Of a stretch of DNA of 27,443 nt, positions 2,722 to 23,658 are shown one piece after another; positions within the stretch are counted from its first letter, which is position 1, and every line of letters starts with the position of its first letter. The DNA comes from Gammaproteobacteria bacterium (lineage in GTDB: Bacteria; Pseudomonadota; Gammaproteobacteria; GCA-001735895). Below the pieces are notes generated by a model. It was not told the origin of the DNA. It made no database searches and saw only the letters and a program-made list of their open reading frames with translations. The stretch spans positions 1 through 27,443 of the forward strand of contig JBNKUM010000086.1 in assembly GCA_050298595.1 (NCBI GenBank). The letters run 5' to 3'. Position numbers and translations under genes: made by a program.

Positions 2722-5700
2722 ATGCAAAATATATTTAGCGCGTTTATTTTTCTTCTGCTTATAACCTTGCTTTCCGCCTGCGGCGACTCTGGTTTATTTA
2801 ACACATCAGAAACCTATACCGACACCGACAAGGATGGGATCATAGACATCTTCGATACCGATGATGATGGCGATGGTGTTGACGACAGCAGTGATGCCTT
2901 TCCACTGGATGCTACCGAAACTCTCGATACCGATGGTGATGACATTGGTAACAATACCGATACCGACGATGATGGCGATGGCATTGACGACACCAGTGAT
3001 GCCTTTCCACTGGATGCTACCGAAACTCTCGATACCGATGGTGATGGCATTGGTAACAATGCCGATACCGACGATGATGGCGATGGCGTTGACGACAGCA
3101 GTGATGCCTTCCCGCTAGATGCTAGCGAAACTATCGACACCGATGGTGACGGCATCGGTAACAATGCCGATATCGACGATGATGGTGATGGCGTTGACGA
3201 CAGCAATGATGCCTTCCCGCTAGATGCTAGCGAAACTATCGACACCGATGGTGACGGCATCGGTAACAATGCCGATATCGACGATGATGGTGATGGCGTT
3301 GTCGATACCAGTGATGCATTTTCACTGGATGCTACCGAAACTCTCGACACCGATGGTAACGGCATCGGTAACAATGTCGATACCGACGATGATGGTGATG
3401 GCGTTGACGACAGCAGTGATGCCTTTCCACTAAATGCTAGCGAAACTCTCGACACCGATGGTGATGACATTGGTAACAATGCTGATACCGACGATGATGG
3501 TGATGGCGTTGTCGATACCAGTGATGCCTTTCCACTAAATGCTTCCGAAACTCTCGACACCGATAGTGACGGCATCGGTAACAATGCCGATATCGACGAT
3601 GATGGTGATGGCGTTGACGACAGCAGTGATGCCTTTCCACTAAATGCTTCCGAAACTCTTGATACCGACAGTGATGGCATCGGTAACAATACAGATACCG
3701 ACGATGATGGCGATGGCGTTGACGACAGCAGTGATGCCTTCCCGCTAGATGCTAGCGAAACCCTTGATACCGATGGTGATGGCATTGGCAACAATGCCGA
3801 TACCGATGATGATGACGATGGCGTTGATGACAGCAGTGATGCCTTTCCGCTAGATGCTAGCGAAACCCTTGATACCGATGGTGACGGCATCGGTGACAAT
3901 ACCGATACCGACGATGATGGCGATGGCGTTGACGACAGCAGTGATGCCTTTCCGCTAGATGCTAGCGAAACCCTTGATACCGACAGTGATGGCATTGGCA
4001 ACAATGCCGATACAGATGATGATGACGATGGCGTTGACGACAGCAGTGATGCCTTTCCGCTAGATGCCACCGAAACTCTCGACACCGATGGTGATGGCAT
4101 TGGTAACAATACCGATACCGATGATGATGGCGATGGTGTTGACGATACCAGTGATGCCTTTCCACTAGATGCTAGCGAAACCCTTGATACCGATGGTGAC
4201 GGCATTGGTAACAATACCGATACTGACGATGATAACGATGGCGTTGACGACAGCAGTGATGCTTTTCCACTTGATGCTACCGAAACTCTTGATACCGACA
4301 GTGATGGCATTGGTAACAATGCCGATACAGATGATGATAACGATGGTGAGCCCGACGTAACCGATATAGATGATGATAATAACACCTTAATCGAAGTACG
4401 TAGCCTGGCTGACTTAGATGATATCCGCAATCATCCTGCTGGCGATCAACAATACTCTAGCAACGCAGGCTGCCCTGGTACCTGTCTTGGTTTTGAACTC
4501 ATGGCCGATCTGGATTTTGACACTAATAGCGATAACGTTATGGATGCATCAGATACCTATTACGACCACGATGCTGATGGCAGTAATAACGGATGGCTCC
4601 CTCTGGGAAATCTCGCCTCACCTTTTCGCGCCATTTTTGATGGCAACAACCATTCAATTAGCAATCTTTTCATAAACAGGATACTTGGCGATTCTGAAAC
4701 CAATGGAGGTGGTATCGGACTTTTCGGTGTCGTTGGCAATACGACAAGTGGTTATAGTGCTGAAATCAGAAACCTGTCGCTGACAGGTCACTTACTTTCT
4801 ATAACAGGACGAATTCATACAGGTGCTCTAGCTGGTTGGGCACAAAACACCACTTTTATAAACTGCTCAATTAACAGCTCACTGGCCTCTATTACTGGAA
4901 TAGATGAGATTACCGGTGGCCTGATAGGCGCGATAGAGGATGGAGTTATTAATAACAGTTTCTCTAATGGAAGTGTTCAAAATAGTCTGTTTGGGGCTGG
5001 AGGGCTAGTGGGGTATGTCTATAACAGCAACATAAGCAATAGCTATTCAGCAGCTGAAGTATCGAATTTCGGTGCCGGCTCCCAACAATATTTCGGCGGT
5101 TTGGTGGCTGTGATAGATGGCACTTCAGAAATTAATGATAGTTATGCCTCTGGCAACCTGACGACTACTGCCGACACTGTTGGGGGATTAGTTGGTTATA
5201 TTTACAATGCTGGTACCACCATTACGAACAGCTATGCGACAGGTTCCGTTAGTGGCAGCTATAGTATTGGTGGCCTGATAGGTGAAGCATACACCGGAAC
5301 CATAAAAAATAGTTTTGCAACTGGAAATACTTCTGGAAGCTCTGTTTACGTTGGCGGCCTGTTAGGTTATGCATCCGAGAGCATTTTTATCAGCTCCAGT
5401 TATGCGACTGGTAACGTCACAGGAAACGGTTATGCAGGAGGTCTTGTTGGCTCATTAGACTATGCTACCTCCCCCCATATTATAAGTGCCAGTTATGCAA
5501 CGGGCTCTGTCAGCGCAAATAACCGGGTTGGTGGAATTATTGGTGTAGCCTCATCGGGAGACGCTCTCATTCAAGCCAGTTATGCTAGCGGAGCCATTTC
5601 GGGCTCAAGTGATATAGGTGGACTGCTAGGTTTTGTTGATAGCGGCATCACCGTTAACATCAATAACAGCTACTGGGCTAGTGATACCACAGGGCAAAGT

Positions 5701-5928
5701 ACAATTGCTGGCACTATTGCTGGAACCCTTAACGATACTAACACCTTTGCTGCGTTACTGACAGAACTGCAATGCCCTACCACCGCTAATACGACAGCTT
5801 GTGTTGCCTCTGATTCATTGATAGAACTCTACACAGGTTGGGATGCTATTGATGATGACGACGATGTGGCAACCCCCACTATCGCCCCATGGAATTTCGG
5901 AACTTTCCTGCAGCTACCAACTTTATAG
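2722..5928 (+). CDS. Large lipoprotein with thrombospondin type-3-like Asp-rich repeats and C-terminal GLUG-like repeats (putative Ca-binding surface protein)
   Basis: Hydrophobic signal with lipobox LSA-C20, 14 repeats of DDDGDGVDDSSDAFPLDAxETLDTDGDGIGNNxDT, then FELMADLDF..GWLPLG..FDGNNHSISNL and repeated GGLVG...SYATG units. Confidence 0.85.
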   Translation: MQNIFSAFIFLLLITLLSACGDSGLFNTSETYTDTDKDGIIDIFDTDDDGDGVDDSSDAFPLDATETLDTDGDDIGNNTDTDDDGDGIDDTSDAFPLDATETLDTDGDGIGNNADTDDDGDGVDDSSDAFPLDASETIDTDGDGIGNNADIDDDGDGVDDSNDAFPLDASETIDTDGDGIGNNADIDDDGDGVVDTSDAFSLDATETLDTDGNGIGNNVDTDDDGDGVDDSSDAFPLNASETLDTDGDDIGNNADTDDDGDGVVDTSDAFPLNASETLDTDSDGIGNNADIDDDGDGVDDSSDAFPLNASETLDTDSDGIGNNTDTDDDGDGVDDSSDAFPLDASETLDTDGDGIGNNADTDDDDDGVDDSSDAFPLDASETLDTDGDGIGDNTDTDDDGDGVDDSSDAFPLDASETLDTDSDGIGNNADTDDDDDGVDDSSDAFPLDATETLDTDGDGIGNNTDTDDDGDGVDDTSDAFPLDASETLDTDGDGIGNNTDTDDDNDGVDDSSDAFPLDATETLDTDSDGIGNNADTDDDNDGEPDVTDIDDDNNTLIEVRSLADLDDIRNHPAGDQQYSSNAGCPGTCLGFELMADLDFDTNSDNVMDASDTYYDHDADGSNNGWLPLGNLASPFRAIFDGNNHSISNLFINRILGDSETNGGGIGLFGVVGNTTSGYSAEIRNLSLTGHLLSITGRIHTGALAGWAQNTTFINCSINSSLASITGIDEITGGLIGAIEDGVINNSFSNGSVQNSLFGAGGLVGYVYNSNISNSYSAAEVSNFGAGSQQYFGGLVAVIDGTSEINDSYASGNLTTTADTVGGLVGYIYNAGTTITNSYATGSVSGSYSIGGLIGEAYTGTIKNSFATGNTSGSSVYVGGLLGYASESIFISSSYATGNVTGNGYAGGLVGSLDYATSPHIISASYATGSVSANNRVGGIIGVASSGDALIQASYASGAISGSSDIGGLLGFVDSGITVNINNSYWASDTTGQSTIAGTIAGTLNDTNTFAALLTELQCPTTANTTACVASDSLIELYTGWDAIDDDDDVATPTIAPWNFGTFLQLPTL
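2860..4329 (+). repeat. 14 x 105-bp (35-aa) intragenic tandem repeat
   Basis: GATGCC(T/C)TT..C recurs every 105 bp (2893, 2998, ...); 14 DAF[P/S]L motifs counted in the protein. Confidence 0.95.
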
Positions 5929-17665: not shown

Positions 17666-17983
17666 ATGAAAACATTTTTACTTTTTACCGGAACCGGCCC
17701 CCTACTGGTACTCAGCTCGCACTCATCGGTTGAAGATAGAGTATTCCTGGAGAAACTGGCTGCTAAAGGAATTTTCAAATTTATTGCGCATGAAATACCG
17801 CTCGATGTGGTTAAGGAACGCTACGGCAATCATTACAACATAGCATCTCAGGATCTGCATGAAACCGATGATCTTCGGGTCATTGATTTCGATGGACAAC
17901 GAGCCATGAGACTCATCAAGTTTTCAGAATATGGGCCAGAGTATATGCACGAACCTGATGTGGAATACGAGAAAGACCTGTAA
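17666..17983 (+). CDS. Hypothetical cytosolic protein (105 aa), probably co-transcribed with hppA
   Basis: ATG at 17666 follows GGAGAAAGG, which overlaps the hppA stop; a terminator follows. Confidence 0.8.
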   Translation: MKTFLLFTGTGPLLVLSSHSSVEDRVFLEKLAAKGIFKFIAHEIPLDVVKERYGNHYNIASQDLHETDDLRVIDFDGQRAMRLIKFSEYGPEYMHEPDVEYEKDL

Positions 17984-18012: not shown

Positions 18013-18124
18013 TCCGCCCCTAATACACACGGATCCAACGGAACTAACCACATCATAATAATCAGCTATAATGCGCTGGATTATTTTCAGCGATAAACCA
18101 TAAGGGACTTTCTCAAAAATAGAA

Positions 18125-18273
18125 CTCCAGCATTCTGTAAGATAGCGGTCATTCAAGAAATTGATGTGTATGGCCTCTATCACCAACCTGCCAATTGCAC
18201 CGCACAATACGAATGTCTGCTTTAAGGAAAAGGAGCCATTCACATTCCGACCTTCAATGACTACTATCGACCC
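18125..18273 (+). repeat. Cluster of degenerate ~30-bp palindromes at ~44-bp period (cluster 1)
   Basis: Units start near 18125, 18169, 18212 and 18256, for example GATAGCGGTCATT, AATGTCTGCTTTAAGGAAAAGGAGCCATT, AATGACTACTATCGACCC. Confidence 0.65.
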
Positions 18274-18441
18274 AGGCTGTGTGAAAACTATTTTCCAATT
18301 TTTCAAGTGGAATATGCGGGCTTATATAGGATCAATTTTGTGTGATTTGTAGTAATTGAGTTCTAAATAATCCTGAAAAATTACCCCGTAGTGGGAAATG
18401 TTTTTGGTGTCATCAAATTGAAGCGAGTTTTCACACAGCCT
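18274..18441 (+). mobile_element. MITE copy 1 (168 bp), IS1182-like terminal inverted repeats
   Basis: AGGCTGTGTGAAAACT ... AGTTTTCACACAGCCT; non-coding; second copy at 21716-21882. The family assignment rests on recalled IR resemblance. Confidence 0.88.
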
Positions 18442-18506
18442 GTTGATAAAGCAGCCGTTTGCGTTGTGCTATGCAAAAAGGTGATTTGCTACCAGGAGCG
18501 GTCGTT
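18442..18506 (-). repeat. Palindrome-family units in reverse orientation
   Basis: Reverse complement AACGACCGCTCCTGGTAGC...TTGCATAGCAC...AACGGCTGCTTT aligns with 23159-23220. Confidence 0.7.
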
Positions 18507-18980
18507 TCCTTCAGATTTATGGAAACTACAAAAGTAAGAGCAAGCTAATCATGGAGTGATTCTTTATCTTTACTGAGCCTGTTTATTCGCTATTTATTTA
18601 AAGGGATAATTTATATGGCAAAATTAGCCTCTTAAGCCCTGAAAATAGCCTGTTTTAGTATTGAATTTAAATATAGTCAATAGCTTGCGTAGGTCAGACC
18701 CTGTCTACAGCTTATGAATGTAGACTGGATTTACTGTCGTATTGGGTGGGATACTGAAAGTCTGTTGCTGGCTCAATATGCCGGGATGTTGCGTTTATTC
18801 TTCATTATACCTATACGAGTATTATTAACCGAGCGACTGGAATATAATCATAAACATATAATCAGCGCCAAAAGTTATTTTTATACTATTCTCTTAGAAT
18901 AATAGTGTTCGCCTGCTCGATCTATAAATAATTTTAATCCAAATCCGGAATATCCGGGCCCACTCGTGGTGAGGAAGGTT

Positions 18981-20522
18981 ATGTTCAGAAGCATCAAGTT
19001 TCAGTTTATCGCTCAAATTATCCTGGTCGTTACTTTAATTCTGATAGTTTTTGGTTATTTCAACTACTCAAGCTTCAGAGACGGCTTAATCAATGATCTC
19101 AATGATTCGGTAAACGCCGCGCTTGGACGTATGCAATTAAGTCTGCCGGGACCAATCTGGAATTACAACGCAGGCTCTCTACAAGCCAACATTAAATCAG
19201 AACTGACTGCGAATGTGATCGCCGCTATCCAGGTGACCGGATCCGATGGGAAGACTTTGGCCTGGTTTGGTAAGGAAGGTGTCGATGAGAATGGTAAAGC
19301 GGTTTTTATCGAAATCGACTCAGCGCCGGAAACAACCACAAATACTTCTGAAGCAGAGCTAGTCTATATCGAATATGGAGAGAAAAACGCTGTCGGGATG
19401 GTGACCGTGTACGCCAACATGAATATCATCAAGCCTCGATTGCATACTCTTTTGATGCAACAAGTAGCGATGATTGTAGTGCTGGATGCCAGCATTACCC
19501 TGCTGATACTTGTGGTGTTAAATCGAACAATGCTCAGGCCCATCAAGGTAATTTCTGATGCGATTCAGGAAATTGCCACGGGTGAAGGTGATCTTACCCA
19601 GCAGCTTGATTTACCGCCCGGAAAGGAATTGGACCGTTTAACCAACGGTGTCAACACCTTTATAAATTCTCTCAAGGATATCGTTTCCAGCATTAGTACA
19701 GCTGCGTTGGAATTGCAGAATAAATCAAACGAAAGTCGTGAGAAGGCTATAGAAACTTCGCAACATCTAGTTGGACAGCAATCCCAGATTCAGATGATGG
19801 CGACAGCCACTACGGAGATGACCGCATCTATTTTAGACGTCGCCAATAGCGCGACCGAGGCCTCGAATGATGCTGAAGTAGCCATGAAAAAAAGCGCCCA
19901 GGGCAAGTCGATAGTCGGTACTGTTGTTCGCGATATTGATTCTCTTGCGAAAGAAATTGGCACAGTTACCAGCCAGGCATCTCAACTGATTTCAGAAGGC
20001 AAGAACATAAGCCAGGTGCTGGAGGTCATTAAAACGATTTCCGAACAAACCAATCTGCTTGCCTTAAATGCAGCGATTGAAGCCGCAAGAGCAGGAGAAG
20101 CAGGGCGTGGATTTGCGGTCGTGGCGGACGAAGTGCGTAATTTGGCGGTAAAAACCAGTCAATCTACGGATGAGATTCAAAGTAGCATTGAAACCTTGCA
20201 GAGCGTAAGCGATGCCGTAGAAAAAGGTGTGGCCTCACTGGCTGAACGTACTCAGGTAGGCGTGGAAAGAGTGAGCAAAGCTGGCGACGCGATAGAGGAA
20301 ATTAATATCGCAATCCAGGATTTGACAGAAAAGAACCTCAGCATCTCTACCGCGGCCGAAGAGCAGACTCGAGTTATCACTGAAATTAACCAGAATATTG
20401 TAGAAGTATCCGATGTTGCGAATTCTTTATCCAGGAACGCCACTGATACTGCAGGTCGTGCTGAGGATGTCAGCAAGCTAGCAGGAAAAGTTATTGGAAG
20501 ATTATCGAAATTCAAAACTTGA
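18981..20522 (+). CDS. Methyl-accepting chemotaxis protein (TM-periplasmic-TM-HAMP-signalling)
   Basis: Two TM helices, HAMP ([12 protein letters not shown]...ELDRL), [40 protein letters not shown] 18981 follows GAGGAAGG. Confidence 0.95.
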
Positions 20523-20764
20523 AGATGAAGTCTGGAGTGCAGGATTTTGATATTGAAAGCGCTCAAATAACTGTTAACAGCGTTTAATCTACATGATTTC
20601 TTCATAGTAGCAGGAGCTAAAAGAATACGAGGATGTTTTCGGCGATTGGCAGTTATTTACACTAATACAAAAATGTTCCGTTGTTCCGTGCTCTGGTAAG
20701 TCTGACTGATGCTTTCAGGGCTTTTATAACTCAAAAGTAAAAATTACTACAGAGAGGTAATTAT

Positions 20765-21490
20765 ATGAAAATCCTAAACGCTCTAGTTTTAAGTTTATTT
20801 CTTTCCTTTTCGGTGCAGGCAGAAACTGTTACTGCAGCTCAGGATCCCTGGCCCCCTTTTATTCAAAAAGGTGCTGATCCGGGGTTGTCCATCGCATTAA
20901 TCAAAGCTGCCATGGGAAAGGAGGGCTATACGGTTGATTTCAAAATCATGCCCTGGAACCGGGCTTTAAATGAAGTTAAAAATGGCAATGTGGATATACT
21001 GCCGGGTGCCTGGTATACCGACGAGCGAGCAGGTTATTTGATCTACAGTGATTATTATGCACAGAACAGTATCAAATTTATTAAGAGAAAAGGTGATAAT
21101 TTCGAGTTCAATGGTTTGGATAGCCTCAGCGGGAAAAAAGTAGGCATAGTTGCAGGCTATGGCTATGGCGAAGAATTTTCAAATGCGCCCAACTTCTCTC
21201 GGCCGGAAACAGGTAGCATTGAAGCCAATATTAAAAAACTACTGAGTAATCGGATCGACCTGACTCTGGATGATGAAATTGTGGCCAAGTCTGTCATCAA
21301 GCGGGCGGGAATGGATTTGGGTGCGATTGACTTTACCGCGAACGCGTTATCTGTCAACAACCTGCACATTGCCTCTGGAAAGGCAAATGCACGGGGACAA
21401 AAAATTATTGACGCTTTTAATAAGGGCTTAGCAGCTATCAAGGCAGATGGTACCTACAAAAAAATTCTCGCAGACTATGGTATAAAATAG
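20765..21490 (+). CDS. Periplasmic solute-binding protein, family 3 (amino-acid type)
   Basis: Signal peptide (VQA|E), DPWPPF, PWNRAL, ERAGYLIYSD, LSGKKVG, FNKGLAAIKADGTYKKILADY; GAGG RBS. Confidence 0.92.
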   Translation: MKILNALVLSLFLSFSVQAETVTAAQDPWPPFIQKGADPGLSIALIKAAMGKEGYTVDFKIMPWNRALNEVKNGNVDILPGAWYTDERAGYLIYSDYYAQNSIKFIKRKGDNFEFNGLDSLSGKKVGIVAGYGYGEEFSNAPNFSRPETGSIEANIKKLLSNRIDLTLDDEIVAKSVIKRAGMDLGAIDFTANALSVNNLHIASGKANARGQKIIDAFNKGLAAIKADGTYKKILADYGIK

Positions 21491-21607
21491 TTTTTGTTAA
21501 ACAAAAAGGCGTTGAATTAATTTAGCTCGGTTGAAAATCCCTGTGTATGCCGCACATACCAGGAGCCGATTGCCTATCTTGAGTAAGTACTACAGCGTCA
21601 ACCTCAA

Positions 21608-21632
21608 GGGGCCTGCAGTGGAGGCAGGCCCC
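21608..21632. terminator. GC-rich hairpin downstream of the SBP gene (possible terminator, no U-tract)
   Basis: GGGGCCTGC-agtggag-GCAGGCCCC. Confidence 0.45.
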
Positions 21633-21715
21633 AGTCAAGTGTAAAGTGGACCAAGTGTATAGGGGGCGGAGTGATTAAATTTTAACCAGAACCACTGGTT
21701 GTCCGCTTCGGGTCA

Positions 21716-21882
21716 AGGCTGTGTGAAAACTCGCTTCAATTTGATGACACCAAAAAATTTCCCACTACGGGGTAATTTTTCAGGATTATTTAGAACTCAA
21801 ATACCACAAATAATACGAAATTGATTCTATATAAGCCCGCATATTCCACTTGAAAAAATGGAAAATAGTTTTCACACAGCCT
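21716..21882 (-). mobile_element. MITE copy 2 (167 bp), inverted relative to copy 1
   Basis: By hand alignment its reverse complement differs from 18274-18441 by 7 substitutions and 1 indel (about 95% identity). Confidence 0.88.
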
Positions 21883-22039
21883 GGGGCGATAGGGAGCGTT
21901 CACCATAATCTGATCTCATATACCTGAACGACTGAAATGGCACACCAGAGACAATCACTCATTAACCCAGAATGACCGCTTCCAGGAAGGAGTCATTCAC
22001 TTGCTGACCTTAAATGACTTCCGACCCAAATCGGTCCTT
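21883..22039 (+). repeat. Palindrome cluster 2
   Basis: Half unit at 21883-21900, then units at 21927, 21971 (AATGACCGCTTCCAGGAAGGAGTCATT) and 22013; 21970-22027 is a degenerate direct repeat of 18211-18273. Confidence 0.7.
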
Positions 22040-22105
22040 CAATAAGGCCCGGTCTCAGTGGAGAGCAACCGAAAGGAGCGAATCCATTGAAGCCCATTGT
22101 TAGCG
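22040..22105 (-). mobile_element. Integron attC site (degenerate; R' reads CTT instead of GTT)
   Basis: Minus strand: CGCTAAC-AATGG-GCTTCAATGG...CCACTGAGAC-CGGGC-CTTATTG; R'' is the exact complement of the cassette start GTTAGCG at 22579-22573. Confidence 0.7.
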
Positions 22106-22153
22106 ATCTTTAATTTCACTTCTATCCTTCGTCCTTTCAACTTCCTTTTTGTA

Positions 22154-22564
22154 CTAATCATTGATTGGGTCTGACCGCTCTTGATTATAGTGTTTAAGAA
22201 TCCAGTCTAAAAAATTGGACTTCCTATCAATGTATAATTTATTTTCTTGCATCAATTTTGCTAGATTGTCGCTACCATCATGATGCTCCTTCCATTTTTT
22301 TACACTGACTTTTTCACCATCTATTGTATATAAAACATCGGTGTCTTTTAATTGCATCGATGTTTTAACGGCAAAGTTGTTATTCCAGATATTTACTCGA
22401 ATTGCATACTCCCTGATATTTTTCATCAGCGCTTCATTAAGAATAAATGCATTAATAAATTTCCACAGAAGGAAGTCGCGCAGGATAAGTGCCGCAGGAA
22501 AGATAACGTATGTACCTATTCCAGCCAATAGAATCTTTCCGATGGTAGCCCATGTTATTTCCAT
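22154..22564 (-). CDS. Gene-cassette hypothetical membrane-anchored protein, probably truncated by a premature TAG (original end 22100)
   Basis: N-terminal TM segment; ATG lies 8 bp after the GTTAGCG core; the frame stays open past the TAG to a TAA inside the attC R'' box. Confidence 0.75.
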   Translation of the reverse strand: MEITWATIGKILLAGIGTYVIFPAALILRDFLLWKFINAFILNEALMKNIREYAIRVNIWNNNFAVKTSMQLKDTDVLYTIDGEKVSVKKWKEHHDGSDNLAKLMQENKLYIDRKSNFLDWILKHYNQERSDPIND

Positions 22565-22572
22565 ATTTTTTT

Positions 22573-22631
22573 CGCTAACGTTGAAGCTCAGCCGCGCAGT
22601 TTACTGCATCGGCTGGGGCGCCTTGTTATGC
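22573..22631 (-). mobile_element. Integron attC site (59 bp)
   Basis: Minus strand: GCATAAC-AAGGC-GCCCCAGC-CGATGCAGTAAACTGCGCG-GCTGAGC-TTCAAC-GTTAGCG = R''-5-L''-stem-L'-6-R', the classical 59-base-element architecture. Confidence 0.9.
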
Positions 22632-23068
22632 GCTTTACACTCCAAGCCAGGATTGCTAGCGCATTGTTTTTTTGCCCATTCAAGTAATTCGTAGTTTTGC
22701 ACTTGAATGGACTCCCCTTGTTTTGATAATTCTGACTGATCTTTTAGAAGATTATTGGGCGGGTTGTCCTCCCAGAGAATACTGGCTGCATTCAGGGCAC
22801 GAATTTTTGCCTCCTCGAAGCCGTTTGCATTATTGGCGCCCTGATATTTCGCGACATACTGGAGGTGATTACTCAGATTGACATCGATTAGTTCTTGCGC
22901 TCCCTGTATATCGTTTTTTTCTAGATAATGAGCGTATCCTAGAGCCTCAAGTACATTTTGAAGTGCATAATCTTCCATAGATGCCTTCACATCAGAGGAA
23001 TCATTACCAATCCACCACCCCAAAATGAAGCTAGTAATTATCAGTAATATCGTAGCTACATATTTCAT
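22601..23068 (-). CDS. Gene-cassette hypothetical exported or membrane-anchored protein (155 aa)
   Basis: N-terminal hydrophobic helix; ATG lies 12 bp after the GTTAGGC core; C-terminus (HNKAPQPMQ) reads into the attC. Confidence 0.8.
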   Translation of the reverse strand: MKYVATILLIITSFILGWWIGNDSSDVKASMEDYALQNVLEALGYAHYLEKNDIQGAQELIDVNLSNHLQYVAKYQGANNANGFEEAKIRALNAASILWEDNPPNNLLKDQSELSKQGESIQVQNYELLEWAKKQCASNPGLECKAHNKAPQPMQ

Positions 23069-23080
23069 TTTCTATTTTTT

Positions 23081-23103
23081 GCCTAACAGCTTGATTATGT
23101 GAC
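23081..23103 (-). other. Cassette-array entry site (GTTAGGC core; possible attI remnant or secondary site)
   Basis: Minus strand GTCACATAATCAAGCT-GTTAGGC; no attC hairpin upstream of this core. Confidence 0.45.
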
Positions 23104-23158
23104 ACGCACAAATATTGACTTATGTTGCATTCTATTCTCAATCATAGGTAAAACAATC

Positions 23159-23222
23159 AATGACCGCTCCTGGTACCAACTTGTCTATTGCATTGCACCA
23201 TTGAATGACCGCTTTTACCCAG
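23159..23222 (+). repeat. Palindrome cluster 3
   Basis: AATGACCGCTCCTGGTACC at 23159 and AATGACCGCTTTT at 23204, joined by linker TTGCATTGCAC. Confidence 0.7.
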
Positions 23223-23418: not shown

Positions 23419-23658
23419 ATGGATAGGACATTTATGTGTTTTGCAATATCAACTGCGCTCATAGCGCTTCTTTGGCTTTATAGCGACTATATGCTGGAGC
23501 AGTATGCTTTATCGATTTCGACCAGTGGTAATCAATGGGCAATGGTGGCCATTGGATGGGAAATAATACCGCTTATCTGGCCCGTATTATTAATGGTAGT
23601 GGTTGCTGCCAGTGCGGCGACTTTTTTCGTGATGCGTCGCCACCAGGGCAGTAAGTGA
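23419..23658 (+). CDS. Small two-TM membrane protein (79 aa)
   Basis: Two hydrophobic helices and a basic C-terminal tail; AAGG upstream. Confidence 0.65.
   Translation: MDRTFMCFAISTALIALLWLYSDYMLEQYALSISTSGNQWAMVAIGWEIIPLIWPVLLMVVVAASAATFFVMRRHQGSK

Follow-up and report, generated by a model that had tools for sequence, protein, structure and literature searches.

The contig JBNKUM010000086.1 of a gammaproteobacterium (assembly GCA_050298595.1) was analysed over its full length of 27,443 nucleotides, referred to here as the window; the source genome is G000 and the window is its contig C86. An accessory island lies between the hppA operon, which ends at 17983, and a gene at 23419. It contains genes for a chemoreceptor and a solute-binding protein, two small genes that belong to no known family, together with clusters of short inverted repeats, two miniature inverted-repeat transposable elements (MITEs) and integron-type attC sites, and no recombinase gene is present within the window. 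The repeats are the subject of this text. Judged from their sequence, 13 units in the window are decayed copies of a proteobacterial element composed of three dyads (types I, II and III), each with two inverted arms around a short centre, which may function as the joints of a gene-cassette system.

Repeat units and insertions at the island

A first-pass annotation of this DNA had listed 14 positions as units of one repeat family with a 12-6-12 dyad. These positions were scored with an arm model trained on other genomes only, which detected a strong arm at eight of them (18125, 18212, 18442, 18478, 21699, 21971, 23159 and 23204) and a moderate arm at three (18169, 18256 and 22013). Positions 21883 and 21927 were weak in the model and are included because of BLAST copies elsewhere in G000. 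The remaining one, 21546, was rejected, as it corresponds to conserved 3' sequence of the solute-binding-protein gene in relatives and marks no junction; the claim of a single family therefore stands for 13 of the 14 units. The coordinates and spacings given earlier are correct (measured here as 44/43/44, 44/44/42 and 45 bp), and a recount confirmed that the linker TTGCAnnGCAC occurs three times in the window. The reported resemblance between 18211-18273 and 21970-22027 corresponds to 48 identical columns out of 63, and arms are indeed present at both island edges, at all four MITE junctions and at the end of the attC array. The 12-6-12 structure holds for the family consensus and not for the window copies, which are mostly half-sites; near-complete dyads occur only at 18212 (9-nt centre) and 21971 (7-nt centre).

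In the junction DNA (1,640 bp) eight arms score at least 8.3, which exceeds chance (3.1 expected at a cut-off of 6 and about 0.6 at 9). Across G000, half-sites on the same strand are most often spaced by 42 (16 pairs) or 45 (18 pairs), with 0-9 pairs at other distances, and outward-facing arm pairs peak at a gap of 15 nt (25 of 109 matches, compared with 2 of 94 in the reversed genome). A looser scan for arrays gave 64 in the real and 62 in the reversed genome, without excess over the controls; thus, the register-specific tests alone carry the reality of the family in G000, where the copies are worn and cannot be counted reliably. The features of the island are collected in Table 1. The interior of the complete triplet (21938-22025) is 94-97% identical to five other copies in G000, and partial sets occur at 18169-18272, 18443-18506 and 23159-23222, the second of which resembles C85:168043-168107 by BLAST.

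Table 1. Features of the accessory island (positions in the window; C, contigs of G000; G001, a related genome).
Position	Strand	Feature	Basis or detail
18141..18168	.	Lone right arm (left island edge) and 15-nt linker	Arm score 12.6; arm and linker also in G001, C32 and C85
18169..18196	-	Hybrid dyad: type-I left part with a linker that elsewhere follows type III	G001 and G000 copies
18212..18240	-	Type II dyad, 9-nt centre in this lineage	Both arms score; repeats at C76, C85, C100 and C22
18256..18272	-	Type I half (GACCC), interrupted by MITE	Arm model
18273..18442	.	IS1182 MITE of 170 bp; flanks GACC/TTGA, unmatched	Inverted ends as in two 1.68-kb IS1182 elements
18443..18506	+	II-like right half and linker, then type III site with decayed left arm	Arm model: right arms at 18450 and 18497
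18507..21697	+	Cargo block, III to I	Methyl-accepting chemotaxis protein 18966-20522; solute-binding protein 20765-21490
21698..21715	+	Type I left half (GGGTC), interrupted by second MITE	Arm score 12.6
21716..21883	.	IS1182 MITE in the opposite orientation to that at 18273; flanks GGTC/GGGC	Same ends
21884..21926	.	Degenerate right half-site and longer linker	BLAST copies C75, C21 and C22; weak by arm model
21927..22039	-	Complete triplet: I 22013-22039, II 21971-21997, III 21927-21956	Centres GACCC, TCCAGGA and TGGCAC
22040..22110	-	Degenerate attC (G of GTT changed), abutting type I arm	Read from sequence; C62 match; fold z -0.63, not significant
22154..23068	-	Two integron-type cassettes (136 and 155 amino acids)	attC at about 22573-22630; boxes read from sequence; fold z -2.07
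23081..23158	-	attI-like segment, no integrase gene, fused to right arm of site III	Copy comparison
23159..23222	-	Type III site 23159-23188, linker and lone type II arm at 23204 (right island edge)	Arm model

The two MITEs belong to IS1182, as indicated by terminal repeats shared with the two 1.68-kb elements, which encode IS1182 transposases (NF033551), and by the short target duplications of other copies in G000. The MITE junctions are the result of IS1182 targeting the central hexamer: 19 of 20 paired IS1182 or MITE copies in G000 occupy the central four bases of the hexamer (read by eye), and an exact 4-bp target duplication accompanies 12 of the 20, the two in the window being without it. 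The unmatched flanks of these two, together with the flip of site orientation across them, suggest MITE-mediated rearrangement, and the system in this window looks old, with worn arms and MITEs that settled in and rearranged the sites. Intact IS1182 elements are located at C64:12059-13740 and C67:44313-45994 and are the likely source of the 18 paired MITEs; the whole set in G000 is a clear case of a DDE transposase that targets a dyad centre. Elements of the IS30 and IS110 families sit in the same centres in alphaproteobacteria.

The segment at 23081-23158 is attI-like in that it heads a cassette array and, at the 16 places where it occurs in G000, the copies with a full 3' end diverge just past G^TT. 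In relatives it follows a III-type site at nine of 12 places. No intI gene lies beside it in the window, and no IntI match was found in 18 fetched loci of relatives. The attC sites at 22040 and 22573 are genuine and separate from the repeat family, and the two cassette proteins have no Pfam or NCBIfam hit. It looks as if ordinary integron cassettes were captured by the attI segment carried on site III. A complete arrangement of site III, attI, three cassettes and site I, with MITEs in both type I sites, is found at C32:4236-7330 of G000, adjoining a 523-amino-acid island integrase and a small resolvase.

The proteins of the left cargo block match Pfam PF00015/PF00672 (chemoreceptor) and PF00497 (solute-binding protein), and the gene pair is present in G001, G010, G011 and G012 with 90-94% identity. 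Homology of G010 to the window ends at 18118, short of the left-edge arm; G012 matches the window from 23195 onward, with different DNA upstream. Other repeated segments were noticed nearby. A 58-bp piece just left of site I (21657-21714), possibly the end of an insertion sequence (IS), recurs at C4, C69, C88 and C99 (91-96% identity), and the interval between site III and the chemoreceptor gene (18492-18812) includes two more repeated non-coding pieces (C16 and C17 of G000; G004 and G010). Outside the island, an open reading frame (ORF) at 2722-5928 encodes a lipoprotein-like protein of 1068 amino acids with about 14 tandem 35-residue TSP3-type repeats and GLUG motifs.

The three-dyad element in other proteobacteria

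A scan of GTDB genomes for the pattern arm-N10-20-arm returned at least 122 stretches, of which 80 were analysed after one duplicate was dropped. Among the matches listed, outward arms stand 15-16 nt apart in 48 of 81, almost all from Proteobacteria. The units there are full dyads, whose centres measure 10-11 nt in 84 of 91 and whose linkers measure 15-16 nt in 43 of 49. The conserved unit is an ordered triplet of about 121 bp, I (GGGTCA), II (ACCCCCG) and III (GTGCCA), in which dyads of about 30 bp (12-6-12 in I and III, 12-7-12 in II) are separated by 15-nt linkers and repeat with an equal period of 45 bp. The triplet is bounded: an arm occurs 15 nt outside I in 3 of 96 cases and outside III in 5 of 83, the corresponding values for the inner sides being 57/96, 35/48, 32/48 and 54/83. 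Both arms follow one consensus and end in GCT(T/A)(T/A), and the linkers are fixed in length and nearly free in sequence (information mostly below 0.5 bit). At loci such as L290:471-953, read-through of the triplet produces spurious ORF starts, for example MSALGQKQT, and is a likely source of false hypothetical proteins.

Across 227 dyads, 28 compensatory arm changes were observed, compared with 34.3 +/- 4.8 in shuffles. The arms are therefore not selected as hairpins, so that selection would act on each arm as a putative binding site. This result already goes far towards refuting the notion that the units are hairpins of the repetitive extragenic palindromic (REP) or bacterial interspersed mosaic element (BIME) type, which would work as single-stranded DNA or RNA and owe their spread to an HUH transposase. 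Such a notion is favoured by two window units that fold (z -2.95 and -1.72) and by the likeness to REPs of clustered extragenic palindromes that serve as IS targets (PMC12288879). Against it stand also the half-sites that predominate in the window, the linkers of fixed length and free sequence and the domain of the Y1 or REP-associated tyrosine transposase (RAYT; PF01797), which was absent from all five genomes searched, four of them site-rich (G000 not searched), with a control that rang in 6 of 14. We consider a REP-like origin highly improbable.

The element is unevenly distributed. Module counts in five genomes were 201, 85, 13, 12 and 6 (control 0-1), and of the 121 genomes in a family sample three carried 51-124 modules and the other 118 had 0-7, where single hits are near background, the control having rung in 11 genomes. 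G433 has 124 modules, and counts of 51-201 are reached in some alphaproteobacterial genomes. A strict pattern searched over the class was found in 2 of 301 genomes, as many as in the control; plasmids gave 10 weak matches with no annotated feature beneath, and the phage collection gave no match. Sixteen short viral contigs of IMG/VR (L277-L292) do carry sites, with Pfam terminase domains in nine, terminase-like ORFs in several more and no capsid genes in view; they probably reflect ascertainment, but a block of ParB-methylase, DUF5681 and large serine recombinase is also present in a G324 hotspot.

Rich genomes concentrate their sites in hotspots, at a density of one per 1-3 genes, and the cargo there consists of miscellaneous accessory genes. 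Neighbouring sites are co-oriented in 337 of 369 pairs. Among 221 adjacent pairs, 113 are I-II, 82 are II-III and none is III-I, and III-I makes up 104 of 240 long gaps, the largest of the nine classes. The resulting III-gene-I grammar bears out the proposal that the units delimit accessory genes. Both cargo blocks of the window conform to it: III (18478), the chemoreceptor pair and I (21698) on the plus strand, and III (23159), attI, two cassettes and I (22013) on the minus strand. The orientation of the cargo genes is not fixed (50:50 outside I and 65:23 outside III). A replichore polarity of the sites was considered and rejected as inconsistent (26:17 in G000, with opposite trends in G325 and G433). 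Genes for ABC substrate-binding proteins lie beside sites in 26 copies in the fetched G425 DNA.

Breakpoints, a proposed mechanism and the search for an enzyme

Copies that share only part of their sequence place the breakpoints in or at the hexamer in three cases, as the first-pass annotation had anticipated. Ten core copies of G425 are common from hexamer I inward, nine of them through hexamer III, and their outer arms and flanks all differ. A 484-bp cargo that is 99% identical between G433 and G451 ends at the I hexamer in both, with different DNA beyond; it begins after the III hexamer in G451, and the G433 contig starts at that very point. The copy in G001 and two others in G000 match the window to 18181 and then continue with GACCC as a solo type I site, where the window instead runs into an extra core of about 87 bp; this break falls inside unit 18169, 3 nt into its centre. 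Two III-linker1-II hybrids were also found, with a comparable one at C55, and they show that joints between I and III occur in which the hexamer of the left partner is kept. Over all duplicated segments of the fetched hotspots, 23 of 137 alignment ends fall no more than 20 bp from a centre, compared with 4.9% at random, a count that includes IS30 and IS110 copies.

These repeats may be site-specific recombination joints of a cassette system whose enzyme acts in trans, a reading to which we assign an even chance. In the scheme that we infer from the sites, each arm would bind one recombinase subunit on double-stranded DNA, strand exchange would take place in the hexamer or at its 3' edge, and site II would serve as an accessory site. 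Exchange of like with like (I x I, III x III) would swap flanks, and an occasional I x III exchange would insert or remove either a cargo block or a core. Entry of a cargo circle at III would create a new solo I, and entry of a core at I a new III, each step supplying the next co-oriented target; alternating entry of this kind would account for the co-orientation, the solo sites and the III-gene-I rule. The asymmetric 6- and 7-bp spacers would favour an enzyme of the tyrosine-recombinase type, and the 6/7/6-bp spacers, identical inverted arms and 45-bp phase are consistent with a complex of this type. Inverted arms, a conserved asymmetric spacer of 6-8 bp and breakpoints within the spacer, which define a tyrosine-recombinase core site, are all found here.

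A number of observations weigh against such joints. Most alignment ends (114 of 137) lie away from any site, and the hexamer classes were partly imposed by the search patterns, which allowed at most one mismatch for I and III and at most two for II. The ends of the chemoreceptor and solute-binding gene pair in G001, G010, G011 and G012 show no such sites. The predicted empty allele, with the hppA operon joined to the 23419 gene through one cluster, was not found in clean form, the locus in G010 being filled by a different, site-free 6.8 kb. No excised circle was detected in contigs from sequencing runs, where the joints were all short and explicable by other copies of the repeats; a 90-bp skip at 18173-18264, with a depth of 2.8 and a 24-nt side, was not counted. 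Both right-hand genes are integron cassettes of the ordinary kind that sit inside a module, and no dedicated recombinase was found in the richest genomes.

Alternatively, the core of about 91 bp could be selfish, a miniature element that integrates wherever a similar half-site is present, accumulates in accessory regions and attracts insertion sequences, moving no genes itself, while cargo arrives via integrons, IS and homologous recombination. This would be in line with genome-specific bursts of one core lineage (G425; G433, where linkers have a mean identity of 9.2/15), with the skewed copy number in the family sample, with the precise occupation of the hexamer by IS1182 and MITE copies and likewise by IS30 and IS110, and with the site-free window cargo of relatives. 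However, random look-alike targets would give neither the co-orientation nor the III-gene-I grammar, one cross-species cargo spans hexamer to hexamer, and the attI segment lies behind a III-type site at nine of its 12 places in relatives. A selfish core is in our view unlikely, if still to be reckoned with.

The IS110-family insertions raise another explanation, namely an IS1111-like family of RNA-guided recombinases whose sub-terminal inverted repeats would be the arms, with I and III as target and donor of one guide RNA, recombining at their shared CA. IS1111 elements have sub-terminal repeats of 11-13 bp with 7+3-bp extensions, which would give a 10-bp junction similar to the 10-nt centre (PMC11187229). 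IS110-family copies in G325, with GGAC/GTCC in their inverted ends, are inserted at the CA of site III, and related copies in G324 at the CA of site I; sequences of this family were seen in G000, G324, G325 and G425, and the break between G001 and the window lies 3 nt into the centre. On the other side, GTCC and GGAC would be 14 nt apart in an IS junction and are 16 nt apart in the repeats, no transposase flanked by these arms was found in 26 long intervals from I/II to II/III, and site II is left unexplained. We regard this explanation as rather improbable.

The enzyme of the proposed joints was searched for in genomes that are incomplete metagenome-assembled genomes, and its presence may be transient. 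Tyrosine recombinases (PF00589) gave two hits each in G433, G327 and G328, presumably XerC and XerD, and two plus a fragment in G325; no resolvase (PF00239) was found in G325 or G328. No Y2 transposase was detected in G000 or G324-G328 (G425 and G433 not searched), nor in the 80 GTDB loci listed, with the same search positive in 9 of 14 genomes of the genus. Sites occur near a FimB-like recombinase in 18 of 80 metagenome loci and in none of the reversed control; this candidate was rejected, as 9 of the 121 genomes of the family sample have it and the query used did not detect it in the three rich ones. The expected co-occurring recombinase or transposase family thus failed to appear in the PF00589, Y2, resolvase, Y1/RAYT and FimB-like searches.

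Two kinds of paired tyrosine recombinase and IS91 transposase occur in relatives of the genus (L063-L066; L067, L042, L068 and L048). The packaging of one resembles that of an integron cassette and includes a terminal attC, and the other ends in an attC-like hairpin and abuts a type I centre. As an engine of the sites the pair was rejected: four pairs of the genus adjoin arms, but Y2 is missing from the genomes and listed loci named above, and sites occur in none of 11 viral loci. The pair is read as another element landing in the sites.

Host XerC and XerD acting on the sites, as they do on pdif modules, would dispense with a dedicated enzyme; the layout of genes between sites is that of dif modules (PMC6449649), and no tyrosine recombinase other than the two presumed Xer proteins was detected in G433, G327 and G328. 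Candidate dif sites of these genomes, however, have inner arms CATAA/TTATG, which the repeats lack, both arms of the repeats follow a single consensus, and the replichore orientation is inconsistent. A role of Xer is thus deemed very unlikely.

Relation to known site families

The description of the repeats as an unnamed site family is upheld: Rfam gave no hits in the window and none in 60 kb of site-rich DNA at E 0.05, and no description of the element was found in the literature searched, where coverage of subscription papers and ISfinder notes was limited and a prior description is possible. The element is apparently widespread in proteobacteria and undescribed. If the repeats are recombination joints, they would explain how common proteobacteria of soil and sediment build up hotspots of accessory genes spanning 30-100 kb, including the large expansions of ABC substrate-binding-protein genes beside sites. 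The element provides an exact, searchable marker of hotspot boundaries and a defined substrate for finding a new recombinase. If the weaker reading holds, it is still a repeat family not listed so far, one that several IS families hit with base-pair precision and that can carry integrase-less attI sites around the genome.

In integron attI/attC arrays and in clusters of attC sites lacking integron integrases (CALINs), co-oriented sites punctuate arrays of accessory genes. The element is alike in this respect and differs in having no GTT crossover, no selected hairpin and no fixed orientation of cargo genes; its consensus is without RYYYAAC...GTTRRRY boxes, and neither G325 nor G433 has an additional tyrosine recombinase that might serve as IntI. 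The res sites of the Tn3 family have three subsites, and core sites of the lambda type have inverted arms and a short spacer. Three dyads within about 120 bp and asymmetric spacers of 6-7 bp recall both, whereas the equal 45-bp period, the breakpoints in several subsites (the flanks switch at I as well as at III), the tens to hundreds of copies and the absence of an adjacent resolvase or integrase set the element apart.

The pdif modules of Acinetobacter likewise have many dyads with 6-bp spacers between adaptive modules of one or two genes and no adjacent recombinase gene (PMC6449649). Accessory-gene modules lie between sites in both; the element differs in its arms, which do not follow the dif-like CATAA-N6-TTATG, in its ordered triplets with three spacer codes and in its mostly chromosomal location in alpha- and gammaproteobacteria. 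The ends and circle junctions of IS1111 elements have inverted arms of 10-13 bp around a 10-bp centre (PMC11187229), a geometry that the 10-nt centres share, and IS110-family elements insert at the CA of these centres; three site classes, a GTCC-GGAC spacing that is 2 nt off and arms with no transposase between them distinguish the element, and no autonomous IS1111-type partner with the same ends was found in the fetched loci. REP/BIME sequences are alike in being clustered extragenic palindromes used as IS targets, with copy numbers very variable between relatives (PMC12288879); the element departs from them in its lack of covariation and of a RAYT, its linkers of variable sequence and fixed length and its concentration in accessory hotspots.

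Taken together with these systems, the element may constitute a third gene-cassette platform beside integrons and dif modules, built on a tripartite site that extends from alpha- to gammaproteobacteria and would propagate itself into co-oriented arrays by alternating I x III integration. We hold this tentatively, at somewhat less than an even chance, and give the same guarded standing to the accompanying view that the site is common enough for IS1182, IS30, IS110 and recombinase-IS91 elements each to target its spacers.

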